This document shows positions 10,738 to 37,246 of a DNA stretch of 45,354 bases, one piece after another. This stretch comes from Candidatus Micrarchaeota archaeon (lineage in GTDB: Archaea > Micrarchaeota > Micrarchaeia > Anstonellales > Bilamarchaeaceae). Where the stretch lies: the NCBI GenBank assembly GCA_023248035.1, contig JAHFFJ010000003.1, forward strand, positions 13,526-58,879, read 5' to 3'. The position numbers and the translations under genes were made by a program. The first letter of the stretch is position 1. The number at the start of each line of letters is the position of its first letter. The notes under the pieces were generated by a model that was given only the letters and a program-made list of their open reading frames with translations, was not told the DNA's origin and ran no database searches.

Positions 10738-10765
10738 TGTATTATATCACCATTTCTACCTTATA

Positions 10766-11137
10766 TTACTTTCTTTTAGTTCTTCGAACTGTTGATTTCT
10801 CATAGTCATACATTTTTTGCTGTAGCTTTTTACTGGTTTTATATGTACTAATCAGACGGGTTTGACTATTTAGCACAAGAATATAAACCATAAATCCCCC
10901 ACCCGAAGCTTGATAGTAAGCTTTGAATTTTCTTTCTTTGGGATTTTCTGACTCGCACTCGACAACTCTATATGGTTTTTCACTTAGATCTCTTTCGAAT
11001 ACCGGAATCATACCTTCTTTATCTAGGATGATATTCCTTTTTCTAGCCTGAGCAATAGCATGATTAGTGTAAACGATAGTACGCTTTTTTGCATGAACAA
11101 GCTTTCTAAAGATCTCACAATCAAGTATTTGTTCCAA
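10766..11137 (-). CDS. DUF4258-family protein (putative toxin)
   Basis: IVYTNHAIAQARKRNI near the N terminus is the DUF4258 H-x(3)-R-x(2)-R-x-I style motif. The gene is paired with DUF2283. Confidence 0.55.
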   Translation of the reverse strand: MEQILDCEIFRKLVHAKKRTIVYTNHAIAQARKRNIILDKEGMIPVFERDLSEKPYRVVECESENPKERKFKAYYQASGGGFMVYILVLNSQTRLISTYKTSKKLQQKMYDYEKSTVRRTKRK

Positions 11138-11193: not shown

Positions 11194-14100
11194 TTGCACA
11201 TGAACTTGGATAGAACACGAAAAACCATAAATAGTTACTTTTATAAAGAGTTTCTGCCATATTTTATCACTACATTTCTGAGAGATGATATTATGGCAGG
11301 TTTACCAACTAGGACACGAGAGAACATAAGAGCAGACAGAGAGGCACTTGGAAGAAGAGCATTGGTACCTTGGAGCGGCGCAAGAAAAATGGCAAAAGCT
11401 CTTGCAGTAGAAGAAGCGAATCTTGAAAGATTAGAAGGTGTGCGTAGTGAAGAAATTGTTAGAAAAGAAGTACGTGAAGGAACTATAAACAGATCACCAG
11501 AAGCAACAGCAGTTGCTGGTGGATTTGTAGTAGAATTTACTAATGCACTCCAGAGAGAATTAACAAGCGGACAGGAACGAACTCAAACGGGTCTTGATGG
11601 GGATGCAAGCATAAGAAGAGTGCTTTGTAATGGTACTTTCGTCGCCGGAATATTAAATACAATTAGAAAAACACCGCTTGAGGAGAAGGATAGTCAATAC
11701 GCAAATGCAATGACAAGAGTGCGGCAGAACCTGGGAGCAAAACTTGCTGCAGGATCTAACCCAGCACATACAATACCTGCTCTTAACGCCCAAGAATGGG
11801 ATATTATTTACGTTACAGCATCCGAACTCCAGCAACGGAATGAAGTTAATGCAATTGATGAGATCATTACATTTGCTGAGCAGGTAGGATTACGGAGATA
11901 TGCGGCCGACAGCAACAAAAATCCAGGAGAATTTGTAGCTTCTGTACTTGCCGATCTTGCAACAAAAGTAACAATAAGCGATGACTCCCCAGCAGGAACA
12001 CGTTCAAAATTGATAGATGATAGCCCGATAAAAAGTTATCTTGATAATAAAGCCAACGCAGCAATAGAAGATGCAGTTGGTGAACTAAAACAAATTACAA
12101 GAATCATTAGATTGGATTCCGGTCAACTTGGTTCTGTGGTAGATAGTTTCCGTGCGGGATTGACTGAAGGTCTTGATTCAACTGCACTAAAGCAGCGTGT
12201 GGTAGAATTAGTAGGTGCTGAAGGAGAGTTGGTAGGTAGGATAGGAGAGGCAGTAGATAATATTTTTGGGAGACTCAATAAACGCAAACCAGGAAGCCTT
12301 ACTGATGGGGAGTGGATAAAATCAATTAGTGTATGGGAAAGACGACCACAAGGAATAGCAAGTCCACCAATGCCAAATGAAGGAAAGATGGAGAGAGCCG
12401 GCAAAGCAATAGCCTATCTTGCCACAGCAGAAGCTTGGTTACGATTGGTAGCATGGCTGTGGGATAAGAGTTTCAAAACTGATTTTGAACACCTTACACA
12501 CCCAACAGATAAAATAATGACAACTGACCAGAATGGGATTGCCCGTCCGACCTGGATGCCAAGAATATTCAAATTAATTCCAAGAATGCTTACCAGATAT
12601 GTTGTGTATGGCCTTATTTTGGGTTCAGTAACAGGAACTACACTTATTGGCGGCCCTTATTATTATGCACCTGAAAGAAGCTGGGCTAAAACATGGACAT
12701 GGCTAGCCGCTCAGGAAAAAGACCGCAAAATTGTCCGAACAATAACTGACGGTTACGAGAACCCAAAAAAACTCACTAAGCGCGAAGATGACTATTACAA
12801 AAAAACATTTGGATTAGATAAAAGAACCGGTAGTGAGACTGATGATAATGGGATAAATGATAGGGTAAATTGGCTTAAGGAACATCCGGAAGTATTGACC
12901 TATCTTCAGGAACATGTAACAGGAAGAAAAATATTGGAATATAAAGAACTCCACGAAAATCCGGACACTTGCGGCGTGGTAGGAGGAGCGAAAAAGAAGG
13001 TTGCAGTTACCGCAGGCCCACAACCAAAAGTGAGCAAAAGCTGCGATAAATTGGGAGTAACTACAGTCCAGCAAGTAGAAGAATACCAGCCAGTCGATAA
13101 GGATGATAAATGGAAGCCCGGGAAAACTATTTGCTGCCTTATAGATATGGAAGTAGAACCAGTAGCAGATGGTTTAAGGCTCAATCCTCACTTTGCTGCA
13201 CAGTTTGTAGCCGAACTTAAAGAAGTTTCAGATAAAGGCACAAATGTAGATAGGGCATATCTTGAGGATGTTGATAGGCGTGCTAGCCTTGTAGAAAAAG
13301 GAATTCTCATAAGTGAATCTCAGAAAAAGATAATGGATGAATGTGGAATAAAAGAGTACAAGAATGCACAATTTGTAGCCACACAAGGAGTGTTTGAATT
13401 ACTCCGTCCACGATGTAAAAAGGGCGAAGCTGTAGTTTTCATTCCTGAAGATAAACGAGATGCCTATGTTGCAACATGGATTGCTACAGTACAAAAAGTA
13501 CAACCGGGAGTAGATCCTATAGCTTATGCAATTTCAGAGGATGTGATTAAACAAACTGATTCTGCAATTCTTAGTGCAGGAGTTAGCCAACAAATACTCG
13601 TAGATTCTTCCGCACTTTATAAACAAACCCAGATAAGGAAAAAATTCGAAGTGCTTGATTTCAAAACTCAGACCGCAGTAGATATTTTAGTTGCACAGCC
13701 GGACATTGCAGAGCTTCTTGAAAAGTTCATTAAAGATGGTGCAAGCTATAAGGTCAACCCAGCACGTTCGGATGAACTGGTTGCTGCTATTGCAAGATAT
13801 AAGTCAACGAGGAAAAACATTGGTGACTTTGATCCATTTACCGATCCGCCAGGAGTAATGGTTAAAGGTGCATTAGGAAATGGATTAGTGACTACCACCC
13901 AAACCGAAATTAAAGCGGATAAAAAACCACAAATAAAGTGGGATGATGATACAAAAAAATTCTATGAAACAAATGCATCTTTAGATGGTATTGTAGATGC
14001 GATTTTAACCATCATCCAAAAGGAAGCTGTGAGGGATGGGTCAGATTCAGAACTTATAGAAAAACTAACGAAGGAAAAATTCAACGGAAAGAAGGATGAC

Positions 14101-14322
14101 ATGGTACAATATTTCAAAGCTGCTGCAAAGGATTTCCTTACAAGCAAAGATGATGATATAGTAAAAATCCGCGATGGAAGTGGTGAAAAAGGAAGTCTTG
14201 TTGGTATGAAAATAACTGGTGAGGGTAACGATATGAAAGTAGATATTGCAGCCAGTGATGTAAAAAAAGCCAGGGACGCAATGAGGCAACGACTACATGC
14301 ATGGCTCACTGAGCAGAAGTAA
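11194..14322 (+). CDS. orphan large protein A (1042 aa) with two internal hydrophobic helices; alternative starts at ATG 11200 or ATG 11293 (MAGLPTRTRE)
   Basis: 3.1-kb ORF with normal composition and no N-terminal signal peptide. Hydrophobic segments are AIAYLATAEAWLRLVAWLW (about aa 405-424) and YVVYGLILGSVTGTTLIGGPYYY (about aa 467-490). No family recognised. Confidence 0.8.
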   Translation: MHMNLDRTRKTINSYFYKEFLPYFITTFLRDDIMAGLPTRTRENIRADREALGRRALVPWSGARKMAKALAVEEANLERLEGVRSEEIVRKEVREGTINRSPEATAVAGGFVVEFTNALQRELTSGQERTQTGLDGDASIRRVLCNGTFVAGILNTIRKTPLEEKDSQYANAMTRVRQNLGAKLAAGSNPAHTIPALNAQEWDIIYVTASELQQRNEVNAIDEIITFAEQVGLRRYAADSNKNPGEFVASVLADLATKVTISDDSPAGTRSKLIDDSPIKSYLDNKANAAIEDAVGELKQITRIIRLDSGQLGSVVDSFRAGLTEGLDSTALKQRVVELVGAEGELVGRIGEAVDNIFGRLNKRKPGSLTDGEWIKSISVWERRPQGIASPPMPNEGKMERAGKAIAYLATAEAWLRLVAWLWDKSFKTDFEHLTHPTDKIMTTDQNGIARPTWMPRIFKLIPRMLTRYVVYGLILGSVTGTTLIGGPYYYAPERSWAKTWTWLAAQEKDRKIVRTITDGYENPKKLTKREDDYYKKTFGLDKRTGSETDDNGINDRVNWLKEHPEVLTYLQEHVTGRKILEYKELHENPDTCGVVGGAKKKVAVTAGPQPKVSKSCDKLGVTTVQQVEEYQPVDKDDKWKPGKTICCLIDMEVEPVADGLRLNPHFAAQFVAELKEVSDKGTNVDRAYLEDVDRRASLVEKGILISESQKKIMDECGIKEYKNAQFVATQGVFELLRPRCKKGEAVVFIPEDKRDAYVATWIATVQKVQPGVDPIAYAISEDVIKQTDSAILSAGVSQQILVDSSALYKQTQIRKKFEVLDFKTQTAVDILVAQPDIAELLEKFIKDGASYKVNPARSDELVAAIARYKSTRKNIGDFDPFTDPPGVMVKGALGNGLVTTTQTEIKADKKPQIKWDDDTKKFYETNASLDGIVDAILTIIQKEAVRDGSDSELIEKLTKEKFNGKKDDMVQYFKAAAKDFLTSKDDDIVKIRDGSGEKGSLVGMKITGEGNDMKVDIAASDVKKARDAMRQRLHAWLTEQK

Positions 14323-14427
14323 ATTTTTTAATTTAAAAATAGATTAAGCCTTTGCGGGAACTTGGTTCCGACGAAAGCTCCCTTAGGCTTATAAAGTTGC
14401 CCAGGGAAAGGAAAGTGCGGTGCTCTT

Positions 14428-14709
14428 ATGCCCAAGAAGAAAACAACCAAGAGGATACATGATGCTAGTTCTTTAGAGCAGGAAACGCTAAAACGAGTGG
14501 AGCGAACTCTTGAAACATTGGGAAATTTTTTAGCAAAATGGAATTCTTCTAAAAAACCAGAGGCCATTTCAGGGCAAGTTAATATGATTAAAAAATTCTA
14601 CACTAGCCTGCAGAATTGGAAAAAAGAAGCAGACGAAGGAGAGAGGGAAGGGGCAACGCAACGACTGCGGGATTTTGTACTCATATGCCGCAGTTATGAG
14701 GTGAAATAA
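14428..14709 (+). CDS. small helical protein B (93 aa), translationally coupled to giant protein C
   Basis: Its stop TAA (14707-14709) abuts the ATG of the next gene (14710). A GAGGTGA Shine-Dalgarno for the downstream gene lies inside its 3' end. The sequence is charged and helical. Confidence 0.6.
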   Translation: MPKKKTTKRIHDASSLEQETLKRVERTLETLGNFLAKWNSSKKPEAISGQVNMIKKFYTSLQNWKKEADEGEREGATQRLRDFVLICRSYEVK

Positions 14710-17700
14710 ATGGCTGGCGAACTTATACGAAAAGACCAAACCGCAGAAAAACCAATAGTAATTCCACGAAGAACACCAGTTCTGGATGATACCGAAAATA
14801 AAAATCTTGAAGCTGCTATGAACAAAGCTGGAATTGCAATTTCAGATATAGTAAATCACGCTCATGTAGTAGAAAAGCGGATACCGGTGGGTTTAGAAAT
14901 AAAAAAGGAGATTGTCGAACTTAAAACAACTATTTTAGCCCTCAAAAAGGAGATCGTTCCAAATGTACCAGTGCTCGGTGAGCAATATGCAATAGACCTG
15001 GAATATATAGAAAAAATAGTAAACAGGGCAGAAAAGTCATTTACAGAAAAGAGATGGGTGGAGTGCGTTGATCTTCTTCGTCAGGCACGAAAGATGATAG
15101 GAGCAATGCCAGAAGTTTTTGGAGTCCAGAGAGAGGTTATACTTATGGGCTACCCAATAGAGATGGGTCCCGAAAAACTCGATCGCTTTCTTAATGCAAT
15201 AGCAGGTTCACTTCATGATTTTGGAACTGGCAATGAGAGGCGCGCAAAATTCATACTTGACCTCACTAGGCACTATATCAAGTACGGCGGAATTTATACT
15301 ATCAAGAATGATTTGGTTGTTGCAGAGCGCGATCGACTTGTAGATACTACGATAGCAAGGGGTTTAGCTTCACGTAAAAATGTTAGATATACCGATTATG
15401 ATGCAGCAGTTGACCGGGATGCACTTGCAGCATTCAGAAAGACTGCAGAAATTATTGCAGATCAAATCAGACAGGAAAATACCAGGATATTCCGATTGTG
15501 GAGAGCAGATATAAGTGCCATTCTTACTGAGCGTGTCGATGAGACTACCAGAAAAAGATATGAGAGTTTTGGTAAGGAACTCGATGCTATGCTAGTAAGA
15601 TTACGTACTGCACAAACCGCAGGAAAAATAACAAGTGACGAACTAAATGAGATTGCAACAAGGTACTTTACACTGAGTGGCCGTGAAACTGCAGATGAAA
15701 GGGGGGAGAGAATAGTACAATCGGCAATGATGATTGGTACACCCAAGGCACTTGATGGAACTGCGGGGTGGTTTGCGCAAAGAGCAATTGATGCAGTTGC
15801 AGAAAGGCGCTATGGAGTTGCCGAACTCGCACTTGCAATGACATTATACATAAATGCAAGTGGACAGAAAAACGCTTCTAAAGACAAATATTACAAACAA
15901 GTAACAGATGTGATTAGAAATAATACTGAACCCAATAGCAAACTTATTGCAGAACTTGAAGCACTAACCTTCTTCCATAGAGTAGAGCGTGTAAAAAAGC
16001 GTCAACCAAAAAGCCCGCAGTTAGCAAGAATGATGGAGGTGCAAAAGACAGCACTTGAATATATAGCGAAAGGAAAACCCGAGGATGGGCGAACGCTAAT
16101 TGCAATGGGACAACGGTATCTGGATATTTTTACTGCAAACGGAAAAACTTCACCTGCAATCACTATAATAGAAGGCGCACTTGATCAGGCCATAAATGGC
16201 AAAGAGACATTTTTACAGTTCAACAATGGCGTTAGCTTATACAACTTTACATTAGATACAGGCAAACTTCGAACTTTGGCCTCAGAATGGGGAGCAGGAT
16301 TATCCCATGGGCGTGAATTTGTAGAAAAAATCTGTGGAAGAGTGGAGCAACTTGCTGCAAATGGCGATACTTGGGAAGCAAGAAAAGTTATGACATACCT
16401 GTTGATGTATAGCGATGCAGTGATACGCCTGGGCGAAATTAAGGGAGGGAAGGTAGTAGGGCATAGGCCACAATTTAGCGGTAAGGGAATGGAAAGTGCA
16501 CTTGATGCAGCCGCAGCAGGACAAAAAACAGTGGGCGGTAAGAAAGTAGAAAACGCTTTCATGGATGGCTGGAATGCCAATCAGATAGAATACGTCATAA
16601 TAGAGGCCAGAAGAATAAGTGACCTTGCCCAGAAAAGGAAGGTTGGGTCGGAAACAATAATCGAGGCTATGAAAGTTGCAACGCAACGGGGAGAGCAAGC
16701 AAAGAAAGATGAAAGCCTGCTTCCAGATGCATTAAGACTTGTATCTTATGCAGGTGAGTTTTATGGCCTCTTAGAGAAAAATAAAAACGAGGGTTGGAGA
16801 TACCAGCTCATAACAAGCAGTGTTGAAGGTTATCGCAAGGGCGGAAAGGATATTCTTGATGCTATTAGAATGGAGGCACAAGCAGAAACTGATCAGGATT
16901 TGGATGCAGCAGCCAATCTTTTTGAAGTTGGAATGGCAAGAGTGGATAGTACAAAACAAACAGTAGTGATGCTACTCCATGATTTCACTCAGGTAAAACT
17001 TACATTAAATACATTAGTAAGCCAACAGAGAGACCAAACTAACCTTAAGAGGCTTGTTGCATTTGAACAGGATTACTCAGCTGATTTGATTCTTAAGAAT
17101 GATATTGCGAATAGGAGTAAAGGAACGATAAATCAGCACCTTTCTGCAATGGAAAGTGCAGCAAAAGCAGGGGATTTTGAAGGATATAAAAGAGCAAGAG
17201 CAGCACTCGAAAGAAGAGTTGAACTTGTTTCTACTCAAAGTGAAAAATACCAGCTTATGGCTGCTGTTGCAGGTCTGGAAAATGCAAAGAAGGATTTGAT
17301 TGGACTTTATCAAAAGCATTTCGGAATAGACCAGTTGAAGACAGTAATTGATCTTTCACTTATGAGTGATGATCAGCTTGCTGCGCTTGCAAACACCACC
17401 GGAAGTACCCCTGGTGAAAACCTGAGGAACAGGTTTGCAGGATTAGAACTTAGAAGACACCAGCTTATTGCAAAAATAAGAGAAAGTGGAAGAACTGAGC
17501 TCAAATTGCCAGAAGCACTCAAAAAAGAGTTCATGGCTTTGGTTACCGATTATGATAGCGAAAGAAGAGTGGCAATTGCCTATCATGAAATATCTATGCA
17601 GCTTAAGCTTAATGACAGCTACCGTGAATCAGTATTCCATAGTGACCATGCCATGCGGGCTACAGTATTACAAGAGCTTGATGAGTCAAAAAAGCATCTT

Positions 17701-20700
17701 TTTAATGCACTTGGATTTTTGTTTAATGAACCATTTGGTGGAGGACCAGGGCCCCGAGTGAATAAAGTAGAAGTCGAATATAAGAATGCAATTGAATTAC
17801 GTGCAAGAGCATTGCAAAACTTTAGTGCAGAATTAAATCGAGGTAAAACTACAGCCGTGTTTTCACAACTTGAAGCTGACCCTACCGGAGTGTTAGGCTT
17901 CTACATAAAAGCGCATGAGGATTCATTAGGCGCAATTCTTGAAGGCTCCCCGGATGCAGGAGTTAAGAAAGCGCGGATAGCATCGATTATGGAGCAGTCA
18001 ATATTCTACATCAACACCACCCAGCTCTATCAGGGCAAAGCTGGAGATGGAAGCACGTATGGTGAATTGCAAACTGGAGTATTCATGCTTGCAAGCAAGG
18101 CGTTACGTGGAAATGCTGATGAAAGCCAAGTTGAAGCAAAGTACCACGAACTTAGTGAACTTGTAAAGAGTAATGACCAGATTAGTAGTGCAATAAAAGT
18201 TGGGGGGGCATTGTCACTTAATCTGGTTAATTTCTTAGTTCCCGGATTTGGAACTTATTTATCGACCGGGGCATTTGCAGGAATGGCAACTGATCAGGCT
18301 ATAACAGACTACAGAAGAGAGGGTACCTTATCACCTATGACAATGGTGCATCTTGGATTAGCAGTACTTCCATTGAAATTCGCAGTGCTTAAAGGTTTTG
18401 CAAAATCAAGGGCAGGAGCAGCACTATTAGCAGCAGAAAGTAGTAGTTTAACTAGAACAACCGAGCTTCTTGAAACTGGAGAAAGTTGGTCTAAAGCAGG
18501 CAGAGTAATCAATATTGTTGAGCGCCCCCTTATCGGATATTTCATGCTTGCTGGGGGAGGTGCTGCATATGAATCTTATAAGGAAAAGGATTGGGCGAAC
18601 TTCATACTAAATGCAGGAATGTTGGTTGCACCATTAGTACCTCACGTAGCAAAAGGCTATGAGAAAGCAAGCGAGTATATCGCACTTAGAAGAGCAGGAC
18701 TTGAAACAGTTGAAGAGGGTTATACTCACAAAAATCTTGCAGGCAAGATCTATACAGCAGCGCAGGTAGAAGTTGCATTGAGGCTTACAGAACGTATGAA
18801 AGAAAATGCAACGCTACGTGGTACTGATGATGTTAAACGAATGGAGATGGCACTTCGCCTGGTAGATTCCCAGCAACCAGTTCCTATTCCAAAAGAGGTA
18901 TCTGGAGTTCCAAACAGACCGGCAAATGATGTGGAACAACCTAAAGTTGTCATAAAACTAACCGAGGTCCCATTAACTTCAGCAGAAACACTTGCAGCCA
19001 GCCTTCAGGCTCCAGATGGGCTTTTCACATTCTTAAGAGAATATTTCAATCCTGCAACAACAGGAAGTGCGATGGCAAAAATTGCATCACTTCGTGAAAT
19101 TTATCCAGATACTTATTCAGGCATAAGAAAGGTGATAAATTCTATTGCAGAAAATGATGGGGCAAGAAATGCAATAATGAATGCAACGGGACCGCGCGAT
19201 CCCAATGTACAAATGCAGCAGGCACTTAGGAATGGCGCATCTCAAATCGGAAAACTACTCACTCCACCAGAAGCATTTGCGATGCCCGAAGTCCTGGCAG
19301 CAACAGGAACATATGGCCAGCAACTTCGTGTAGTACCTCGATTAAGGGTGGTTGGAGATGAGGTGCGTGCAACTGATCAAGCAGCACCACCAGGACCCAA
19401 TGCAGAAGTTGCTGCTCAGGATGGTAGATCTGCACCAACTGTAGTGGGAAGAGCGAGGCAGGCAGTAGCTCGAGTTATTCTTGGTAAAAAACCAGATTTA
19501 AAAACACCAGAACCACCAACAAAACTTGGTGAACTTCCAAAAACATTGATTGATGGTGCACAGAATATTCCAACTGAAAGTTCAGCTCAAATAGTAAAAG
19601 CAGCCTATGATGTTTACATAAAAGGAGCAATAGGTGATGTACCGCTAAGTCCTGAGGGAAAGGCAATTTATCTGGAAATAATAAAGAAATTATATTCTAA
19701 GGCAGTACGTAGCGAACTTGAAAAAGATGCAACCACAACAAAAATGAGAAAATGGTTAGATGATAAGATTGGCGCAACTGTAGATGCAAGAGAGGTTGAA
19801 AAAACAAGGCTACGGAGAGCAGGTGGAAAAATAATAAGCCCTGATGAACTGGAAAAAATAATTGATCTTGTAGGTGGAGCGCAACCAGTAGATAGTATAT
19901 CGACACTACTTAATGTCACCCTCAATCCTGCAGAGAGAGCAGCGCTTACTCTTAGAAGAGTAGATAGTTTACCCCCATCTGCATTGGATGGTCTTGTTAG
20001 TGAAGTACGTAGTTCAGAAGCTGCAGCAATACAAGCACTTGATATTGCTTTAAGTCCAGCGGCAAGAGCAATGCGAGTGCAGGTAATTCAAAAGGTAGGA
20101 GTGGTAGAAAGTTTGGATAGTGCTATGCTCGATGGGATGAAAGAAAGTAAAGAGATACTAGCTATAGTTAGGCAACAAGGAGAGGCAAAATACGCAAACG
20201 ATCCGAACCCACGATTACGCGACAAAGCGCCTGCTGATGGAGAAGCAGCCGTAAACGCATTCAAAGCAGCCACCACTCTGGATGATGCAGTTAAGTTATT
20301 ACCCAATTACATGGCAAGAGAATTGCAAAGTCTCCTTGGAGCAAGAAATGAATTTTCAGCTGCTTACAGTTTTGCAGAAGCAAATAGAATGGTTCTTGCC
20401 CGGGTGAGTGAAGGCGAAATAGGAAGGGCGGAGAGAGGAAGACCTATTGGGCCAGGTGCCATGAGAGCATTATCTTCTGGTGGCAAGAAGACATTAAATT
20501 TAGCAGGAACGGTTTTAGGTTATCTTTTTGATCCCGCAGGATTGGGTCATGGGGTATCTTTAGTGCGTGAGGCCCCGGTAGGTGGAAAGGTAAGAACAGG
20601 TTTAGGAAGGGCAGCTCGCGGAGTACCTTGGGGGATTGCCCAATTTGGAATCGGATATTATGGTTATGGTGCGTGGATGCGCTATGTTAAAGACGCACCC

Positions 20701-22896
20701 GAACGCGAGAAAATAATTCTAGAAATGGCACAGCAATATTACGGAAAAGTTTCTTTCGATAATGCTGGTTTCTTAATGACCAAAGATGGTAAAAGAGTGC
20801 GAGCGGACATAAGCCTTGGTCAACCTAAATCCGATGATTTACGAGTTACCAGCCGTCAGGGATTGAAAACCGCACTTGCAGATGAAACCCCAACTGTGAT
20901 CAATCCATCCAAACTGGACGAGATGATAAGTCAGTCAAAAGTTATGGCAGAAAAAGTTAGTGAACTAAATGATTATCTGGCAGCTGCATTAGGCCCAGCT
21001 CCTGGGAAAGTAGCCTCAGTAGTTAAAAAAACTCCAGATGAGGCAAAACAAGCTTTGACTGATAGTCTTGCTAAAATGGGCATAACCATAGCTTTCGAAA
21101 AATTAAGAGCAGAAATGGGAACAAAGAAAGAATTGGACATTGATTTACTTATAAAATTGAGAAAAGGCAAATACGGAGACTGGCAAAATGGAACGATGTT
21201 CACTCGTGCGCAGGCAGTTGCCTACCAGTTCTGCATTGATTCAGGAATGCTTGCCAATGAGGCAATGGAAAAATATCCATTCCTGCTTCAAAACAAGGAT
21301 CTCTTTGAATTCCTATGGCAGAGTACAACCACTAGGGTGATGCCAGCATCCTATGTTAGTAACGTTATTGCAGCACTTGAAGCTACCGCCCAGCTTGGAA
21401 ACGCTCGAGCTGATCCCGCCAAATTTGATAGTAACATGACTGCATGGGCAAAAACAAAAAACTTCATATTGGAAGCTCCAATCAGACCGCTTTCTTTCCT
21501 GAGCATTTTTGATAGGCAAGCTACAGAAGATATAGCAGGAGCTACAAAGACCGGATTTTTTGGTTTGGTTACTGCTAATCGAGCGAATGCTGCAGCAATG
21601 CAAAAATTGAATGACTTTGTAATAGATAGCAGTGAAAGAATATATGGTAACCCCTCAGATCTTGCAAAAATAATATTTGACACTGATCTTTCAAAGATAA
21701 ATCCCCTTCTCAATATAGCCAGAATAAGCCAACTAGTTAGGGATGGAAACACAACTGAACTAGAGTTGATACTTACAGGAACCGGAATCACACTAGAGCA
21801 GCTCGAAGCAACAAAAACAAGAGAAGGAAGAGATATTAGACTCTCAGACTTGAAAGATCCGATAACAAAAATACTGCAACCACTTGGAATATCATTTGAG
21901 GATATGCAGGCATATATCATAAGGCACAATAGAACGGATATCAACTTAGTAGATATTGCAAAACTACGTGGATTTGTTGGACCTGCAATGCTGGCAGAAA
22001 TCGATCCAAGAATGCGAGATTCACCTGAACTCGTCGCATTTGTAGGTAACAATTCGGATGGAACCGATCGCGGAGTTTTGAGATTTGTAAAAGATGGTCA
22101 AAAGCAGATGATAAAGCAGGATAAAACTTCCTCGCTTTATGAGATTCTTCAGGATCTCGCAACCAATACAACAGATAAAAAACCAGAAGAAATCTATGCT
22201 ATGAAAAGTGCAGTAAAAGATGAAAAAGTAGTTGGCGGTGGGAAGTTAGTACCTACCGGATATGCTGCAGATAAAGAGGATGTTTATCAGACAGAAGGAC
22301 TTTGGAGAGGCCCTACAGCTAGTAAGATTCGAGGTACCGCTCCTGGAAAAGAACTTACCGATGCAGAACTCGAAACCAGATCACAAAGCATATTCCAAAG
22401 GAGATATCTTCCTGATTATGCAGGTCAGCAATTTAAAGCAGATAAACCAAAAGAAGCCGAATTAAGCCCGCTCGAAATAGAGGCGAATAAATTTTATAGT
22501 AGTGAAAGAGGAAGTGAATTAGCTGGTCTGATAGAGGGCATAATAGCCCGAATGTATATAGATCAGAAAGGGGATGGACAACTTATTCGCGATGCATTTA
22601 CTCCCCAGAGAAGAGCCGAATTAGATACGGCAGCAGATATTGAAGCAGATAAAAAAATTACAAATACAGAGCAAAAACTAGAAACGCAGGCAAAAAGACG
22701 GGCGATGCGTGCAGTAATGAGTGCACTTTATGACACCATAAAAAGTACTGAGGCTGCAGATAAAAATAAGGTAGCTAGTTGGGGAATGGTCATAAGTGGT
22801 TCTGATGAAGAGATAAAAGTAACAATAAGCGATACCCGAAGAAGTGAAACCCCCATAAAGCAGTTTATAATCGGAGTTTTAAAGGTGGATAAATGA
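14710..22896 (+). CDS. orphan giant protein C (2728 aa), mostly helical, with a central cluster of 4-5 hydrophobic helices
   Basis: Uninterrupted 8.2-kb ORF preceded by a strong SD, with no N-terminal signal peptide. Hydrophobic cluster at about aa 1160-1312 (GGALSLNLVNFLVPGFGTYLSTGAFAGMA; MTMVHLGLAVLPLKFAVL; PLIGYFMLAGGGAA; FILNAGMLVAPLVP). A second Gly/aromatic hydrophobic patch lies at about aa 1927-1992. Confidence 0.9.
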   Translation: MAGELIRKDQTAEKPIVIPRRTPVLDDTENKNLEAAMNKAGIAISDIVNHAHVVEKRIPVGLEIKKEIVELKTTILALKKEIVPNVPVLGEQYAIDLEYIEKIVNRAEKSFTEKRWVECVDLLRQARKMIGAMPEVFGVQREVILMGYPIEMGPEKLDRFLNAIAGSLHDFGTGNERRAKFILDLTRHYIKYGGIYTIKNDLVVAERDRLVDTTIARGLASRKNVRYTDYDAAVDRDALAAFRKTAEIIADQIRQENTRIFRLWRADISAILTERVDETTRKRYESFGKELDAMLVRLRTAQTAGKITSDELNEIATRYFTLSGRETADERGERIVQSAMMIGTPKALDGTAGWFAQRAIDAVAERRYGVAELALAMTLYINASGQKNASKDKYYKQVTDVIRNNTEPNSKLIAELEALTFFHRVERVKKRQPKSPQLARMMEVQKTALEYIAKGKPEDGRTLIAMGQRYLDIFTANGKTSPAITIIEGALDQAINGKETFLQFNNGVSLYNFTLDTGKLRTLASEWGAGLSHGREFVEKICGRVEQLAANGDTWEARKVMTYLLMYSDAVIRLGEIKGGKVVGHRPQFSGKGMESALDAAAAGQKTVGGKKVENAFMDGWNANQIEYVIIEARRISDLAQKRKVGSETIIEAMKVATQRGEQAKKDESLLPDALRLVSYAGEFYGLLEKNKNEGWRYQLITSSVEGYRKGGKDILDAIRMEAQAETDQDLDAAANLFEVGMARVDSTKQTVVMLLHDFTQVKLTLNTLVSQQRDQTNLKRLVAFEQDYSADLILKNDIANRSKGTINQHLSAMESAAKAGDFEGYKRARAALERRVELVSTQSEKYQLMAAVAGLENAKKDLIGLYQKHFGIDQLKTVIDLSLMSDDQLAALANTTGSTPGENLRNRFAGLELRRHQLIAKIRESGRTELKLPEALKKEFMALVTDYDSERRVAIAYHEISMQLKLNDSYRESVFHSDHAMRATVLQELDESKKHLFNALGFLFNEPFGGGPGPRVNKVEVEYKNAIELRARALQNFSAELNRGKTTAVFSQLEADPTGVLGFYIKAHEDSLGAILEGSPDAGVKKARIASIMEQSIFYINTTQLYQGKAGDGSTYGELQTGVFMLASKALRGNADESQVEAKYHELSELVKSNDQISSAIKVGGALSLNLVNFLVPGFGTYLSTGAFAGMATDQAITDYRREGTLSPMTMVHLGLAVLPLKFAVLKGFAKSRAGAALLAAESSSLTRTTELLETGESWSKAGRVINIVERPLIGYFMLAGGGAAYESYKEKDWANFILNAGMLVAPLVPHVAKGYEKASEYIALRRAGLETVEEGYTHKNLAGKIYTAAQVEVALRLTERMKENATLRGTDDVKRMEMALRLVDSQQPVPIPKEVSGVPNRPANDVEQPKVVIKLTEVPLTSAETLAASLQAPDGLFTFLREYFNPATTGSAMAKIASLREIYPDTYSGIRKVINSIAENDGARNAIMNATGPRDPNVQMQQALRNGASQIGKLLTPPEAFAMPEVLAATGTYGQQLRVVPRLRVVGDEVRATDQAAPPGPNAEVAAQDGRSAPTVVGRARQAVARVILGKKPDLKTPEPPTKLGELPKTLIDGAQNIPTESSAQIVKAAYDVYIKGAIGDVPLSPEGKAIYLEIIKKLYSKAVRSELEKDATTTKMRKWLDDKIGATVDAREVEKTRLRRAGGKIISPDELEKIIDLVGGAQPVDSISTLLNVTLNPAERAALTLRRVDSLPPSALDGLVSEVRSSEAAAIQALDIALSPAARAMRVQVIQKVGVVESLDSAMLDGMKESKEILAIVRQQGEAKYANDPNPRLRDKAPADGEAAVNAFKAATTLDDAVKLLPNYMARELQSLLGARNEFSAAYSFAEANRMVLARVSEGEIGRAERGRPIGPGAMRALSSGGKKTLNLAGTVLGYLFDPAGLGHGVSLVREAPVGGKVRTGLGRAARGVPWGIAQFGIGYYGYGAWMRYVKDAPEREKIILEMAQQYYGKVSFDNAGFLMTKDGKRVRADISLGQPKSDDLRVTSRQGLKTALADETPTVINPSKLDEMISQSKVMAEKVSELNDYLAAALGPAPGKVASVVKKTPDEAKQALTDSLAKMGITIAFEKLRAEMGTKKELDIDLLIKLRKGKYGDWQNGTMFTRAQAVAYQFCIDSGMLANEAMEKYPFLLQNKDLFEFLWQSTTTRVMPASYVSNVIAALEATAQLGNARADPAKFDSNMTAWAKTKNFILEAPIRPLSFLSIFDRQATEDIAGATKTGFFGLVTANRANAAAMQKLNDFVIDSSERIYGNPSDLAKIIFDTDLSKINPLLNIARISQLVRDGNTTELELILTGTGITLEQLEATKTREGRDIRLSDLKDPITKILQPLGISFEDMQAYIIRHNRTDINLVDIAKLRGFVGPAMLAEIDPRMRDSPELVAFVGNNSDGTDRGVLRFVKDGQKQMIKQDKTSSLYEILQDLATNTTDKKPEEIYAMKSAVKDEKVVGGGKLVPTGYAADKEDVYQTEGLWRGPTASKIRGTAPGKELTDAELETRSQSIFQRRYLPDYAGQQFKADKPKEAELSPLEIEANKFYSSERGSELAGLIEGIIARMYIDQKGDGQLIRDAFTPQRRAELDTAADIEADKKITNTEQKLETQAKRRAMRAVMSALYDTIKSTEAADKNKVASWGMVISGSDEEIKVTISDTRRSETPIKQFIIGVLKVDK

Positions 22897-25361
22897 CAGC
22901 AAGCGTATCATTATCCGGAAACCAAATAGTAATATTTTGCGACAAGGGAGGCTTATCAAAAAGCAGGTCTACTGGAATAATGATTGATACCAACAACCCA
23001 CAAAACATAGCTGCACAGATAGAGAGTGCAAAAAAAGCAGCAGCTGCATTTTTTAAAACTTTTAATGGTGGCGATGCTGATGTGATGGCAATAAATGCAA
23101 ATGCAGCTGCCAATGCCATAAAGAAGAGTCTTGGAATTGCTGATACTAAAGCAGAGCCAGTAGCACCTCCAGTTGCAAAAGCTCCTGCTCCAAAACAAGT
23201 GGCACCGAAACCTCAACCATCCACTCGAACTGAACAAAAAGTGCCTCCAAAAAAAGAGGCAGCAAAACCTGGAAACCCCGCTCCTGAACCGAAAGCTGCC
23301 GAACCAAAACCCAATATGGGAGGATGGAGGCCACTTAGAAGCAATGAGGTTTTACCTGAAGTTCGTGCAGTAGCAACTCCATTGCAAGGTAAACTCAAAC
23401 AAGGAGAATATCAACAGCAAACAGTAGGTACATTTAGCTATCGTTTCCGTGCTGAGCAACACGATCCAAGAGTACCAAATGGCATAAGCATTTACATAAT
23501 TCAAACACAATACGATCAGCTAAAAAAATACCTCGAAAAACTGGGAGCAGGAACGAATCCGGTAGATTCCACCCCACGCCCAACAATATCTGTGGAATGG
23601 ATACAACAGCAACTTCGCGATTCAAAAGATGATAGAAAAGGTTTAGCAGCAGCAACTTTAGCCCATCAAAATCGAGAGTATGTTGATGGTTACATTTCCG
23701 GTAATAGGAAAGAAACCACAGTAGCTTTATTTGACGCCCTTTCAGATATACCGAGCTTTAAACTTTATTTGGATTCAGTTGCCTCAAGAAAAGTACTTCC
23801 GGAATTTATAGATCTGCAAAAATCGCTCACTGAAAATCGAGGAAAAATTGAAGATAAGCAAGTAAAAGCTGCAGATTTGTACATAAGATATTTCTTATTC
23901 GGATTTGGTGCAATAAATAACCCCCAATACAATAAGGAAGTAAACCAGATTACTGCGATAATAAATGGATTAAAAGAATCCGATCCATCTGGCCAAGTAC
24001 TTATGCGAATTTATGGTTCTGGATCGGTAGATGGTGATACATTAACATCAGCATTACTTTACATAAGAAGATGGAATGCAACTCATCCAAAAAGTGGCAT
24101 CGTAAAACCAGATGAACAGGTAGCTTCTTGGAACGCACCAAAACAGGCGATGCCAGAACAAAAAATAACTGCAGGGGATGCATTTAGCCATCCAAGAATG
24201 ATTATAGTTGGAGATTCTATTTTTGCTGGGGATATAATGACCCCAAAATTACGGGCTCATCTTTTAACTGTTGATCAAAAAGCCACATTATTGAACAAAG
24301 CAGCTTCCAGTGCTCATCTTGAGGATATAAAAAGGCAGCTAGATGCAGCATTAGCTGATAAAAGTTCGAATATTATACTTATTGACGGGGGAGTTAACGA
24401 CATTGGTGCCAAACCAGAAGACATAATAAAAAAAATTGCAGCCATGCGCGATAGCGCATTAGCTGCGGGAAAAGTGGTGATGGTAGCAAAGCTTACGCCT
24501 TGGGGTAACTCCAGGTTTTGGAAAGAAAACTTACAAGAAACCTGGGAGAAGGTAAATGCAGAGATTACAAAATGGAATGATCCGCAAAAAGGAGTTTATG
24601 TAGTTGATTTTGACTGGCTTGGAGAGGGCAACCCCCCGCACATGAAACACGAGTATGCTAGCATAAGCAGCAAGGGAGAAACAGACTGGCTTCATCCAAA
24701 TACCAAAGGAAGGCAGGAGATGGCAGATTTCATATTTAGGATGATGAGTGCACGAACTACCAGCGGGTTTGCGGAAGGAAACGTGAATGTTCTGCCAGAT
24801 CTCTACCAAAAAGTTGCATTGGCAACACCAGAAGGCCTAGTAAAAATAGTTAGGGATAAATCCCAGAAAGTAGAGGATTTCGAAAAACAAAATAAAGATA
24901 GTATAAGAAAAACTTTTGATAGTGCATTTAATGAACTGCTTCATGAAAAAACCAAACCAGTTGGCCGAAATTTTATGACTTTCATACTATCGCAAACAAA
25001 ATACCGTGCCCTTGCAATGGCTGCAACAAGACTAAGTGATGAATCAAAAGAAGAGGATAGAAAGTTGGTTGCACAAGCAGTAGGAGAATTCTTAGCGAAA
25101 GAGGCGACAAATCCTAAATTCAAAATCGACCTTGCAGTTCTCAATGATAATAAGGCTTTTGGAGCGGGAACTATAAATGAACCTGACATGCGAACACTCA
25201 CTGCAATTGCGGTTTATGGCTGGAGAGTGAAGAATCCCCAGGCAGCTGGAGGAGAATGGGGAAGAGCACTTGGCATAGAGCCTCCCAAGGAGATAAAGGT
25301 AGAGCCACCAGTTGTTGAAAAAAATGCTCCACCACCAGAAAGAAGAACATTATCTTTCTGA
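22893..25361 (+). CDS. multidomain protein D (822 aa): N-terminal domain, Pro/Ala/Lys-rich linker, unknown domain, SGNH/GDSL hydrolase domain, C-terminal helical region
   Basis: ATGA overlap with gene C. SGNH blocks: I MIIVGDSIFAGD (aa 436-447), III LIDGGVNDIG (aa 496-505), V DWLHPNTKG (aa 598-606). The linker is aa 85-140 (EPVAPPVAKAPAPKQVAPKPQP...PEPKAAEPKP). Confidence 0.85.
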   Translation: MTASVSLSGNQIVIFCDKGGLSKSRSTGIMIDTNNPQNIAAQIESAKKAAAAFFKTFNGGDADVMAINANAAANAIKKSLGIADTKAEPVAPPVAKAPAPKQVAPKPQPSTRTEQKVPPKKEAAKPGNPAPEPKAAEPKPNMGGWRPLRSNEVLPEVRAVATPLQGKLKQGEYQQQTVGTFSYRFRAEQHDPRVPNGISIYIIQTQYDQLKKYLEKLGAGTNPVDSTPRPTISVEWIQQQLRDSKDDRKGLAAATLAHQNREYVDGYISGNRKETTVALFDALSDIPSFKLYLDSVASRKVLPEFIDLQKSLTENRGKIEDKQVKAADLYIRYFLFGFGAINNPQYNKEVNQITAIINGLKESDPSGQVLMRIYGSGSVDGDTLTSALLYIRRWNATHPKSGIVKPDEQVASWNAPKQAMPEQKITAGDAFSHPRMIIVGDSIFAGDIMTPKLRAHLLTVDQKATLLNKAASSAHLEDIKRQLDAALADKSSNIILIDGGVNDIGAKPEDIIKKIAAMRDSALAAGKVVMVAKLTPWGNSRFWKENLQETWEKVNAEITKWNDPQKGVYVVDFDWLGEGNPPHMKHEYASISSKGETDWLHPNTKGRQEMADFIFRMMSARTTSGFAEGNVNVLPDLYQKVALATPEGLVKIVRDKSQKVEDFEKQNKDSIRKTFDSAFNELLHEKTKPVGRNFMTFILSQTKYRALAMAATRLSDESKEEDRKLVAQAVGEFLAKEATNPKFKIDLAVLNDNKAFGAGTINEPDMRTLTAIAVYGWRVKNPQAAGGEWGRALGIEPPKEIKVEPPVVEKNAPPPERRTLSF

Positions 25362-25459
25362 TTGTCAACTTTCTCGCCCCGCCTTTTTGGAATGCACTTG
25401 GACTGGCATTTTGAGGAGCCGTTAGATTTTTATCATAGTGTGGTTAATAGACAATAGAT

Positions 25460-26587
25460 ATGACACTAATTCAGTCTGGAGTGAAATTAGAATATTCCAA
25501 AGGAGATGCAGGAATTATTCGCAACAGACGTCCTTTTCTTAATCCAAGAATGATGGCACTTGGGGATGGACGGGATGGCATCAATCCTGCGACATTTATA
25601 GAAAGAGTACGCAATAAATTTTTCCCCCTAACTGCAGATCTGGAAAGGGTGGATATGGAATTTTTATCTGCAATGAATCGCGGGGCAAAAACTCTCAATT
25701 TTTTAATGGGTGAATATTTACCTGATAGATTATCCGATTTAAAAGTAGGCCATTTTAGCGAAGAAACCAAGTTAGAAGACTTGATTAGAGAAGCACGAAG
25801 AAGATATCGATCACTAGCAGGAACAGGAAGTGCGGAAAATAAACGCTCAATATACGAATTAATACGAGCAATTGAACTGGGCCACCAAATACTTAAGGTG
25901 GATACCGAAAAAGAAGTCCAGCTTTCCTTGAGGCATTACCAATCACTTGTAGAATGGTTCAATAAGTTCTTGGGAATTACTAGTGGAGTACCCTGCGATA
26001 GACTTCCATTTAGGAATATTTTCAATACCACAATAGATGTTGATCTTTATGGCGAAGATGATCAGGCATTTCACTCACGATTAAAATGCCTTACTTCGGA
26101 TGGAAGGATAAAATATGGTTCAATTATTATGAAAACTTATCTCGATTTACTAGATGAGGGATCTAAACCAAGGTATAGTGCAACAAAAGATTATACTGGT
26201 GTAGAATTTTTAGTTTCAAACGAAAAAGAGGCAAATGATCTTGCGGAGGCCTTTAGGTACACCAACCCCATGAGATTGTTGGAAGGATTTAAGCAACGTA
26301 AAAGAGCATCGGAGATAAAAGACAATCCAGAAGCCAGTCCTGCATTTGGACTGACAAAATTCATCTTAAGAATTCCGGTAAAAGTCGAACCAATAAAAGG
26401 CCATCCACTAGGTGATTTGTTGTGCCAATTGCTTCCAGTAGAGGTGCAGATATTAACATTAGAGGATCAACATATTAGAGCAAGCAATCCTGATGCAAAA
26501 CATGAAAGCTACAAAAAACGTCAGTTCGAAAGAGTAGTTCCAGGACTTTTCCCAAGAGAGATCTATAGGAAGGAGCTTTATAGTTAG
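25460..26587 (+). CDS. protein E (375 aa) with RelA/SpoT-synthetase-like (RSH/SAS, nucleotidyltransferase-fold) motifs in its C-terminal half
   Basis: GRIKYGSIIMK (aa 215-225; compare G-R-x-K-x(2-3)-S-I-x-x-K), KDYTGVEFLV (aa 243-252; compare D-x-x-G-x-R-h-h) and LPVEVQILTLEDQH...AKHESYKK (aa 325-353; compare EVQIRT..QH.WAE..H..YK) occur in the canonical order and spacing. Confidence 0.45.
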   Translation: MTLIQSGVKLEYSKGDAGIIRNRRPFLNPRMMALGDGRDGINPATFIERVRNKFFPLTADLERVDMEFLSAMNRGAKTLNFLMGEYLPDRLSDLKVGHFSEETKLEDLIREARRRYRSLAGTGSAENKRSIYELIRAIELGHQILKVDTEKEVQLSLRHYQSLVEWFNKFLGITSGVPCDRLPFRNIFNTTIDVDLYGEDDQAFHSRLKCLTSDGRIKYGSIIMKTYLDLLDEGSKPRYSATKDYTGVEFLVSNEKEANDLAEAFRYTNPMRLLEGFKQRKRASEIKDNPEASPAFGLTKFILRIPVKVEPIKGHPLGDLLCQLLPVEVQILTLEDQHIRASNPDAKHESYKKRQFERVVPGLFPREIYRKELYS

Positions 26588-26661: not shown

Positions 26662-27192
26662 ATGTTCAAAAAATTGAACTTATTTTCAAAAACAGAAATG
26701 GAACTTTTAACTTTTATTGCATCTAAAGATGGCGAATTTTATGAAAGGGAGATAACACGACTTACTGGTATAAGTGTTGGTTCAGTAAATAACATTCTAA
26801 AAAAATTTACTGACCTGCATTTTGTAAACAAAAAGAAGAAAGGACGGATGCAATTTTATAGTAGAAACCAGGAAAACCCTTTAATACGGCAGTTTAAGGT
26901 TTTCATTATAATATATGGCCTAATTCCATTTTTATCAAAAGCCTCACCACATAGCAAACGGATAATACTTTTTGGAAGCTGCGCTAAGGGACTTAATACC
27001 GAAAAAAGCGATATAGACTTAGTTATAATTTCAAAAGAAAAAGAACTGCTAAGAAGAATATTTGACCAAGAGGCAAGAATACAATTAATAGTTCTAGATT
27101 CTGTTGAATATGCTGAGCTTGAACAAAATGATAAACCACTTTATGAACGCATTGAAATGGGGATAGAATTACATGGTGAAGGGTATGGATGA
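26662..27192 (+). CDS. winged-helix + minimal nucleotidyltransferase (MNT) protein, antitoxin-like partner of HEPN
   Basis: N-terminal wHTH (EREITRLTGISVGSVNNILKKF), then ILFGSCAKGLNTEKSDIDLVII (the G-S-x(n)-D-x-D NTase motif). It overlaps the next gene by 20 nt. Confidence 0.75.
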   Translation: MFKKLNLFSKTEMELLTFIASKDGEFYEREITRLTGISVGSVNNILKKFTDLHFVNKKKKGRMQFYSRNQENPLIRQFKVFIIIYGLIPFLSKASPHSKRIILFGSCAKGLNTEKSDIDLVIISKEKELLRRIFDQEARIQLIVLDSVEYAELEQNDKPLYERIEMGIELHGEGYG

Positions 27193-27653: not shown

Positions 27654-28142
27654 TTGATCCCGTGGAATGAATTAATAGAAAAATTAGAGCTTGCGATAGT
27701 TTTTTATTTTAGAAAGGGTTGGTATGAACGTGATAAAATGTTAAAGGTAGTCGATGTAACACCAAACAGTGCAGAGATAAGGAAGATGGCGAATGGCGTA
27801 CCAAAAGGTCTTTCCATAAAAGTTGATATGGATAAGATCAGTTCGACAGACCCGCAGACAGTAGTAATAGCCTTCACATACACAGTTGACTACGAACCCG
27901 AAGTGGCAATTGTTAAAGTAAAGGGAACAGCATTGTGCAGGGACACGCCGGAGAATATCAAAAAGCTTCTTTTAGAGCATAAAAAAGGAAAGGTACCTCT
28001 TGAAATTGCAGGAAGTGCAATAAATGCCATAAATTCAAATGTCGGATTAAGTACAATATTCATGGTAAGGCCATTCAACCTTTTGCCACCATTTATGCCG
28101 CCAGCTCTGGTGGATGAAACAGCATTAAAGGGTAAAAAATAG
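27654..28142 (+). CDS. hypothetical protein, possibly a SecB-like chaperone fold; likely true start at the Met at 27738 (MLKVVDV)
   Basis: The layout is beta-rich segments (VVIAFTYTVDYEPEVAIVKVKGTALC), then a helix, then RPFNLLPPFMPP. This loosely parallels E. coli SecB (...FLCEVQQGGIF..., GTFPQLNLAPVNF). The resemblance is weak. Confidence 0.3.
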   Translation: MIPWNELIEKLELAIVFYFRKGWYERDKMLKVVDVTPNSAEIRKMANGVPKGLSIKVDMDKISSTDPQTVVIAFTYTVDYEPEVAIVKVKGTALCRDTPENIKKLLLEHKKGKVPLEIAGSAINAINSNVGLSTIFMVRPFNLLPPFMPPALVDETALKGKK

Positions 28143-37211: not shown

Positions 37212-37246
37212 CTTTATACTATAGTAGTTATATTATTTTATACTAT
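37212..37246 (+). promoter_or_regulatory. putative promoter/operator of the wHTH gene: 10-bp direct repeat tttatactat x2
   Basis: tttatactat occurs at 37213-37222 (TATA-like, ~27 nt upstream of the ATG at 37245) and again at 37237-37246, overlapping the start codon. Both lie in the 178-nt region shared divergently with giant gene F. Confidence 0.35.

Follow-up and report, generated by a model that had tools for sequence, protein, structure and literature searches.

A block of giant genes conserved in Micrarchaeota and its possible place at the cell envelope or host interface

What could a series of very large genes without recognised relatives be doing in the compact genome of an archaeal symbiont? 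We consider this question for a 45,354-nucleotide (nt) stretch of a Candidatus Micrarchaeota genome (assembly GCA_023248035.1, contig JAHFFJ010000003.1, positions 13,526 to 58,879 of the forward strand). This whole stretch is called the window here, and all position numbers refer to it. An original prediction, made from the sequence alone, had described 5 genes in the window, which we call A to E, as a single operon of orphan giant proteins that might form a membrane-inserting apparatus for cell-cell interaction or effector delivery. We find that the giant genes are real, in an arrangement far from a chance one, and belong to an intact, fast-evolving, lineage-specific block, which includes 2 further genes, F and G, but not E.

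Gene content and conservation of the block

All 5 open reading frames (ORFs) of the original prediction are present on the + strand: A at 11194-14322 as a maximal ORF (1042 amino acids, aa), B at 14428-14709 (93 aa), C at 14710-22896 (2728 aa), D at 22893-25361 (822 aa), and E at 25460-26587 (375 aa). Independent assemblies in NCBI, ENA, and Logan data contain the same genes, so the locus is not an assembly artefact. The absence of any recognised family for A, B, and C is upheld, with no hits in Pfam, NCBIfam, PHROGs, or PADLOC and, for C, none among PDB sequences. Both synteny and the closest relatives assign this compact DPANN genome to Micrarchaeota. The proteins are not orphans, however, because the C family has 54 representatives and A, B, and D all have orthologs in syntenic loci.

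The order of the block recurs in 5 loci from other genomes (L001, L006, L009, L010, and L011), and B and C are found together in a sixth (L008). In the window and in L006, L010, and L011, the block has the same housekeeping neighbor on at least one side, with FtsY upstream in L006 and L010 and with Trm56 and phosphoglucomutase (PGM) downstream in L010 and L011. The gene order of L010 is that of the window's own neighborhood: its upstream part runs L39e-L31e-aIF6-LX-prefoldin-FtsY, followed by an A-like gene (1611 aa), a B-like gene (106 aa), a giant (3081 aa), and a GDSL hydrolase gene (804 aa), and its downstream part contains a 131-aa gene (-), a 1691-aa giant (-), Trm56 (-), and PGM. L006 has the same upstream genes and FtsY, then an A-like gene (1309 aa), 2 giants with a B-like gene between them, and a GDSL gene, and in L009, L011, and L001 the B, giant, and GDSL genes are followed by G-related giants. 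Across these 5 syntenic loci an A-like gene is found in 3, an F-like gene in 3, and a G-related giant in 4, with no A-like gene in L011. Conservation of the gene set in related archaeal genomes was the question that the original prediction had put to its own proposal; the set is present in such genomes, and every copy seen is intact, across GC contents of 0.37-0.62. From this recurrent synteny and the BLASTP matches described below, the conserved block is therefore delimited as A, the B-C-D unit, F, and G, and it reaches past position 26587 to take in F (27654-28142) and G (28679-37066). The block appears specific to Micrarchaeota, judging from the genomes in which it was found, and apparently has been vertically inherited. 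In the window, E, the two genes of an MNT/HEPN pair, and a HIT gene break up the block, and G is inverted.

The single five-gene operon of the original prediction did not survive this comparison: the unit is B-C-D, A has a promoter-like region of its own, and E is an unrelated gene. Within the unit, the junctions are as originally described. The stop codon of B abuts the start of C (TAA/ATG at 14709/14710), with a GAGGTGA Shine-Dalgarno (SD)-like motif at 14698..14704 (+), 5 nt before the ATG of C and within the end of B, and C and D share 4 nt in an ATGA overlap at 22893-22896. Among 7 genomes (GC 0.37-0.62), the gap between B and C is 0-13 nt in 6 and 83 nt in the other, and the gap between C and D is -4 nt in the window and -1 to +15 nt elsewhere. 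A (G)AGGTG motif precedes C by 5-9 nt in 6 of the 7. A TATA-like box is found at the same distance before B in L006, L009, and L010, which with the window makes 4 genomes. Because the short gaps, the SD-like motifs, and the TATA-like box before B are all conserved, B-C-D is best read as a conserved, translationally coupled operon, with A and E as separate predicted units.

The gaps that border this operon are longer (105 nt between A and B, 98 nt between D and E), and each has an oligo-T run followed by a TATA-like box. In the A-B intergenic region (14324..14395, +), a run of 6 T at 14324-14329 after the stop codon of A precedes TTATAAA at 14389-14395, 39-33 nt before the ATG of B, and this gap probably contains a terminator and the B-C-D promoter. 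Between D and E (25384..25437, +), a run of 5 T at 25384-25388 and an AT-rich box at 25428-25437, ~25-30 nt before the ATG of E and recognized by consensus resemblance only, would correspond to the end of the B-C-D unit and a promoter for E itself. A scan for bacterial promoters and terminators found fewer sites than in shuffled sequences, but this is uninformative, as bacterial models were applied to archaeal DNA.

The start of A needs correction. The maximal ORF begins at 11194 and databases call a start at 11200 (1040 aa), but the N-termini of orthologs align to an internal Met of A, at 11293. Since the orthologs begin at this position, the start of A is most likely ATG 11293 rather than 11194, so that the gene would occupy 11293..14322 (+) and encode ~1009 aa; the annotated start is ~31-33 codons too early if this ATG is used. 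A TATA-like box, TTTATAAA, is found at 11240..11247 (+), 46-53 nt before ATG 11293 (consensus resemblance only), and a GAGAG SD-like motif precedes the same ATG at 11280-11284 (+).

The (G)AGGTG motif is not confined to C. It is found 5-9 nt before most block genes in the window, L001, L006, and L008-L011, whose GC content ranges from 37% to 62%, and this suggests that SD-led initiation may be common within operons of these Micrarchaeota.

The proteins of the block

C is the largest protein of the B-C-D operon. A word-indexed search found only one relative, a Micrarchaeota protein of 3373 aa that aligns with 30% of C at 25% identity. With residues 30-1000 of C and this relative as the query, an exhaustive profile search recovered 54 cluster representatives of the N-terminal domain at E<=1e-3, 37 of them at E<=1e-30. 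Most members of the family are 1,700-3,600 aa long and match the profile at their N-terminus, and all 7 named members come from Candidatus Micrarchaeota/Micrarchaeia metagenome-assembled genomes. Identity between genomes is ~25-30%, which indicates fast divergence. A genome scan for further relatives returned only L001 again, a metagenome pattern scan returned none, and in the literature we found no paper describing this giant family.

Four regions can be distinguished in C. The N-terminal domain (aa 1-1140, 14710..18129, +), which defines the family, is all-alpha without a recognizable fold class and is found in almost all members. It is followed by a Gly-rich hydrophobic cluster (aa 1160-1315, 18187..18654, +) present in 40 members by jackhmmer, and by a variable middle (aa ~1321-1940, 18670..20529, +) with few or no BLAST matches and no jackhmmer members. 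The conserved C-terminal region (aa ~1945-2728, 20542..22896, +) is found in 26 members, long forms only, and contains subdomains at aa ~1945-2325 and ~2410-2725; a profile search found no PDB sequence match for it. Its final ~125-140 aa, encoded at about nt 22477-22893, show homology to the C-terminus of A.

An AlphaFold2 model of residues 201-1400, built from 31 sequences, is all alpha-helical except for one small beta-hairpin, with predicted local distance difference test (pLDDT) values mostly between 80 and 96 for aa ~200-760 and between 70 and 90 from there to aa ~1100. A Foldseek search of the PDB with this model gave nothing significant, the best matches being de novo designed helical repeats with E of at least 0.12 and a template modelling (TM) score of ~0.1. 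A bridge-like lipid-transfer protein of the VPS13/TamB/AsmA type was considered for the modelled region and rejected, as the region is all-alpha and shows no repeating beta-groove.

The hydrophobic cluster consists of 5 short segments, between which lie polar motifs that are conserved (D, E-Y-R, S-x-x-S-W, and F-P-x-x-H), with K/R-rich loops after segments 3 and 5. Because the charge bias of the loops fits such a topology, we infer that the cluster would form 2 membrane hairpins with both flanks in the cytoplasm, and its conserved polar residues suggest a membrane function. Of the internal hairpins that had been proposed for A and C, the cluster at ~1160-1315 of C stands, being hydrophobic across the family, whereas the stretch at ~1931-1990 of C is not hydrophobic on the family average and the one hydrophobic segment of A is borderline. 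In line with the lack of N-terminal signal peptides noted originally, no hydrophobic segment is found at the N-terminus of A, C, or D.

Beyond the hydrophobic cluster, long and short forms of the C family diverge, and in some short forms a different sequence takes the place of the C-terminal part. Two such forms, P0035 and P0048, carry HD_5; short members of this kind (~1,700-1,900 aa) keep the N-terminal domain and the cluster and end in an HD_5 (HD-GYP-type) phosphohydrolase. P0035 (L007, 10001-15649) stands alone, with no B, GDSL, or G-like neighbors. The other short forms have no recognizable C-terminal domain; by-eye guesses of GNAT or PI3/4-kinase-like endings were dropped for want of Pfam or PDB support. 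Pfam, NCBIfam, and PADLOC identified no trafficking, toxin, or immunity domain in A or C. At L006 (10001-27663, Micrarchaeia), 2 tandem paralogous giants of 2825 and 2895 aa are 51% identical, and a B-like gene precedes the second only.

D, whose start overlaps the stop codon of C, is the only block member with a known domain. The protein consists of an N-terminal domain of ~90 aa, a Pro/Ala/Lys-rich linker, a helical region, an SGNH/GDSL hydrolase domain (aa 438-613, nt 24204-24731, +) that makes up ~175 of the 822 residues, and a conserved C-terminal portion of ~200 aa. The SGNH domain had been recognized in the original prediction and is confirmed by PF13472 (42.1 bits versus a cutoff of 32.9, residues 439-608), with PF00657 scoring 36.9 bits versus a cutoff of 23.6. 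The catalytic blocks GDS (S442), GxND (N502), and DxxH (D598/H601) are kept, and equivalent motifs are present in the L001 ortholog. D is thus an SGNH esterase with an intact catalytic set and predicted activity. Like other SGNH/GDSL hydrolases, it scores above the Pfam gathering cutoff and has the Ser, Asn, and Asp-His blocks; it differs from them in that its domain is embedded between conserved regions without known function and in that the gene always follows a giant gene. BLASTP matched D to 5 GDSL proteins (E 5e-74 down to 9e-7), and orthologs lie directly after the giant in L001, L006, L009, L010, and L011. Since this tight C-D coupling is kept in 5 other genomes, we expect that D works with C. 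By hhalign, D has no module in common with A or C.

A word-indexed homology search found no relative of A, a result corrected by synteny-guided BLAST, in which BLASTP identified orthologs in L006 (E 8e-64), L009 (E 2e-67), and L010 (E 2e-39), all directly upstream of B/C. Five Cys residues (C143, C591, C615, C645, and C646) are invariant in the family alignment. The families of A and of the C-terminal region of C share a terminal domain of ~125 aa (hhalign probability 97.6%, E 4.6e-12), and between the L006 proteins this shared domain is detectable by BLASTP (36% identity, E 8e-17). A PDB sequence search with the A profile gave nothing meaningful.

B (14428..14709, +) is a small basic protein whose gene always directly precedes that of a giant, with a net charge of +7 in the window and +2 to +23 across the family. 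It has homologs in 6 other loci (BLASTP E 4e-23 to 4.5e-10) that share the conserved C-terminal motif RLRDFVLICRxY, and a profile search gave no Pfam or PDB match. B is likely to be a dedicated partner or chaperone of C. F (27654..28142, +) is a small conserved protein of 162 aa that in other genomes is encoded between D and the G-like giant, with BLASTP matches to small genes in L011 (E 8e-13), L001 (2e-9), and L010 (4e-9); these related small genes carry Lys-rich tails, and F has no Pfam or PDB match. An impression from its sequence pattern that F is a SecB-like chaperone was rejected, its profile having no PDB sequence hit.

G (28679..37066, -) encodes 2795 aa and has no Pfam hit. A ~80-aa module marked by the motif L-S-W-L/V-x-x-P occurs in the protein at least 6 times, and the C-terminus reads ...GYAKVSF, which we take to recall the terminal aromatic residue of bacterial beta-barrel proteins. 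Because of its N-terminal signal- or anchor-like segment, G is probably exported. In L009, D is followed at a distance of 367 nt by a strong ortholog of G, with 38% identity across 1475 aa, and in L001 a gap of 5 nt separates D from a giant that weakly resembles G (E 6e-4). The giants of L010 and L011 are homologs of each other, and the former matches the N-terminal part of G (E 8e-7). The Micrarchaeota S-layer protein, of ~101 kDa and with an S-layer Pfam domain (10.1101/2021.04.28.441871), was considered as an identity for G and rejected on the grounds of its size and the lack of a Pfam hit in G.

Gene E and the surroundings of the block

E (25460..26587, +) had been read as carrying RelA/SpoT-like motifs, and both its family profile and its fold support this. 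The D-x-x-G and E-x-Q...H-x-x-Y-K motif regions appear collinear with RelA; the family profile matches only RelA chains in the PDB, with both motif regions in line, but at E 0.1. An AlphaFold2 model of E has a pLDDT of 86, and its top 24 structural matches in the PDB are all small alarmone synthetases, Rel, or SpoT, with probabilities up to 1.00, E ~5e-3, and TM-scores (target) up to 0.46. From the modelled fold, E is best assigned as a divergent nucleotidyltransferase of the RelA/SpoT homolog (RSH) fold. Its C-terminal half is what likens it to the RelA/SpoT superfamily and the small alarmone synthetases, while it differs from them in having its own long N-terminal helical domain and no RelA_SpoT hit, Pfam returning no family at E<=0.1. 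A weak C-terminal match to TIGR04552/TIGR04562 (26.6/26.5 bits) is far under the cutoffs of 125/140. Descriptions of alarmone-type enzymes in archaea are rare.

The E family comprises 17 cluster representatives, proteins of ~375 aa from DPANN-type contigs only, one of them labelled Woesearchaeota. These homologs have housekeeping genes as neighbors and no giant or GDSL gene close by, and no E-like gene is present in any syntenic locus. Since E is an independent gene in other DPANN genomes, it cannot be counted as an effector, as had been proposed, and it is not part of the giant-protein system.

Other small genes are also found in or beside the block. At 26662-27616 (+), overlapping MNT (with an N-terminal helix-turn-helix, HTH) and HEPN genes match the PADLOC candidate system PDC-M05A/B and look like a toxin-antitoxin (TA) or defence insertion within the conserved block; this adjoining pair was the only PADLOC defence-system match, with none for A-E or G. 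Between G and trm56 (37245-38774, +), an AbiEi-like/HVO_2833-type HTH protein with a DUF6036 nucleotidyltransferase directly 3' of it constitutes a second TA-like pair. On the opposite strand between ftsY and A (10411-11137, -), a DUF2283 protein (108 aa) and an unannotated 123-aa ORF are probably another small insertion, because they are absent from syntenic loci.

The window itself is archaeal chromosomal DNA of ~40% GC, with no tRNA or Rfam family and no composition break. Its annotated genes 5' of A include thymidylate kinase, PyrB/PyrI, fibrillarin, S19e, aIF6, prefoldin, and FtsY, and those on the 3' side of the block are aTrm56, an ABC-2 transporter, and PGM.

What the block may do

An obvious comparison is with the SPEARE giant proteins of Nanohaloarchaeota, very large genes of DPANN symbionts proposed for host interaction. 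These proteins carry a Sec signal, ectodomains of immunoglobulin (Ig)-like, beta-propeller, and LamG types, and an ATPase domain resembling VirB4/TraG, and a neighboring gene encodes another ATPase of this kind (PMC10266531). The block is similar in that very large genes take up >1% of the coding capacity of a tiny DPANN symbiont genome, and G likewise combines an N-terminal export or anchor signal with repeated modules. It differs in that A, C, and D have no signal, A, C, and G have no Ig-like, beta-propeller, or LamG Pfam hits, and the N-terminal domain of C is all-alpha. No VirB4/TraG-like ATPase is encoded in the window or in 6 related loci, and no sequence similarity to SPEARE was detected. 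Together with the comparisons below, this indicates that the block matches no known system in sequence, fold, or defining features, except for the esterase domain of D and the unlinked E.

Micrarchaeota depend on host contact and do not have complete lipid synthesis (PMC8975820), and cultivated Micrarchaeota have envelope and intracellular assemblies of unknown protein makeup (10.1101/2024.05.20.594898). The reading we favor, one that falls somewhat short of probable, is that the block encodes a lineage-specific, membrane-anchored envelope or host-interface complex. In such a complex, hairpins would anchor C, and probably A, in the cytoplasmic membrane of the symbiont itself, leaving the large helical domains in the cytoplasm to act as scaffolds. 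Nascent C would be bound by B, its dedicated chaperone or assembly factor, D would be made in step with C and recruited to it, and G would form the extracellular part. The most plausible role for the complex would be to organize a zone of contact and exchange with the host, in which D might process ester-linked groups on acquired lipids or glycans.

Several observations weigh against this reading. The cluster segments of C are short (15-18 aa) and moderately hydrophobic, only one of those in C itself reaches the classical Kyte-Doolittle threshold, and AlphaFold2 confidence over the cluster is low (pLDDT 35-60), so that the cluster could be a buried core instead of a transmembrane element. The HD_5-bearing short form that stands alone implies that the N-terminal domain of C does not need D or G to function. 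A "lipase" role of D on host lipids is doubtful, because the protein carries no export signal and the membrane lipids of archaea are ether-linked. F and the G-like genes of L010 and L011 vary in orientation, and the latter match G at the N-terminus only. Finally, composition and the density of N-glycosylation sequons do not separate cytoplasmic from extracellular parts, and G, the exported control, is not enriched.

Could the block instead come from a virus or another mobile element, with C as a tape-measure-like protein, B as its chaperone, and D as a tail hydrolase? A long helical C with Gly-rich hydrophobic segments, a small gene upstream, and a hydrolase downstream do give a generic resemblance to the layout of a phage tape-measure module, TA modules lie nearby, and the best Foldseek hits of C in BFVD include tape-measure proteins (E 4.5e-3 to 0.5). 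These hits are not meaningful, because their TM-scores do not exceed 0.13 (0.05-0.11 for the top hits, tape-measure proteins among them) and their root-mean-square deviations are 35-70 Å (~50 Å for the tape-measure proteins). Homology to viral structural or tape-measure proteins and capsid or terminase neighbors, which the original prediction had named as findings that would speak against it, were looked for and were not found. A, B, and C matched no PHROGs family, tblastn against 50,697 phage genomes gave no match, an IMG/VR scan with the family profile found no relative, and plasmids gave none. Capsid, terminase, tube, sheath, baseplate, and integrase genes are absent from the window and from L006, L010, L011, and the other loci examined. 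The neighbors in the window are ribosomal proteins, aIF6, FtsY, TA pairs, Trm56, and PGM, with similar ones in L006, L010, and L011, so the block differs from a phage module in its fixed chromosomal position across divergent genomes, besides having neither sequence nor meaningful structural similarity to one, no virion genes, no tRNA or composition break, and no presence in viral collections. We therefore consider a mobile-element remnant very improbable and reject a viral or plasmid origin of the block. The proposal that A and C form a translocator or pore in the host membrane, with D (and E) as delivered effectors and exchangeable heads in the manner of polymorphic effectors, has more in its favor and is nonetheless unlikely. 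Like translocators of type III secretion systems (the IpaB/YopB class), C is a helical protein with central hydrophobic, Gly-rich segments that may form hairpins, no signal peptide, and a small partner gene placed upstream as for translocator chaperones; a hydrolase gene follows, C-terminal parts vary, with HD_5 in 2 short forms, and the ~25-30% identity between genomes points to fast divergence. On the other hand, C is 5-8 times larger than these translocators, B is strongly basic, unlike known chaperones, and has no tetratricopeptide repeat-like match, and no homology was detected. None of the loci examined encodes a secretion ATPase, an export gate, an injectisome, a needle, or a pilus, nor do A, C, and D carry a signal peptide in any of them, and export of a 1100-aa N-terminal domain without a signal would be unlikely. 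No known toxin, trafficking, or immunity domains were found, and E is not linked to giants elsewhere. Injectisomes are not known from archaea. The proteins are at least as likely to reside in the membrane of the symbiont itself as to be delivered into the host.

Two further explanations keep the block cellular. One is an intracellular scaffold with no direct part in host contact, in which C and A (with B) would build or anchor one of the large cytoplasmic bodies seen in Micrarchaeota, such as cage- or barrel-like bodies or filament stacks, or would form a membrane skeleton, and D and G would be separate; this is the leading alternative, possible but doubtful. The ~1100-aa all-alpha array at the N-terminus of C has no export signal, the composition of the proteins resembles that of cytoplasmic controls, the block lies in a housekeeping neighborhood and seems to have been inherited vertically, short forms occur that have neither D nor G beside them, and in ARM-1 there are unexplained cage-like assemblies >100 nm long (10.1101/2024.05.20.594898). 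A scaffold of this kind fits poorly with the conservation of C-D coupling in 5 other genomes, with the conserved polar residues of the hydrophobic cluster, and with the linkage of G-like genes to D in L001 and L009. The other explanation, which we regard as distinctly unlikely, is that B-C-D alone is a unit and that A, F, and G are mere neighbors, sharing a rearrangement-poor region and having unrelated functions. A, F, and G do have their own intergenic regions and vary in orientation, the window's block tolerates insertions of E, MNT/HEPN, and HIT, and L011 has no A-like gene. Against this, A has a C-terminal domain in common with C, a G-like gene lies 5 nt after D in L001, and these fast-evolving genes co-occur in most syntenic loci across genomes of GC 0.37-0.62.

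It is rather unlikely, in our judgement, that the block encodes a Micrarchaeota-specific machine that has already been seen by cryo-electron tomography, be it a host-nanotube docking platform or the intracellular cage or tubule bodies. If this were true, the membrane domain and scaffold of C, the docking domain of A, the SGNH enzyme, and the exported G would together constitute a new archaeal apparatus for cell-cell exchange or lipid acquisition, unrelated to any known secretion or transfer system.

The symbiosis of Micrarchaeota is obligate and depends on cell contact, and their genomes measure ~1 Mb, of which the ~23 kb of the block make up roughly 2%. Apart from the esterase domain of D, it has no relative in described families or solved structures, and it defines new protein families in the N-terminal domain and membrane cluster of C, the C-terminal domain shared by A and C, and B, F, and G. 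E is of interest in its own right, as a DPANN family with a RelA/SpoT-type fold. For the biology of Micrarchaeota, the block provides a short list of candidate genes for host attachment, for the uptake of lipids and metabolites, and for the envelope and intracellular structures of these cells.

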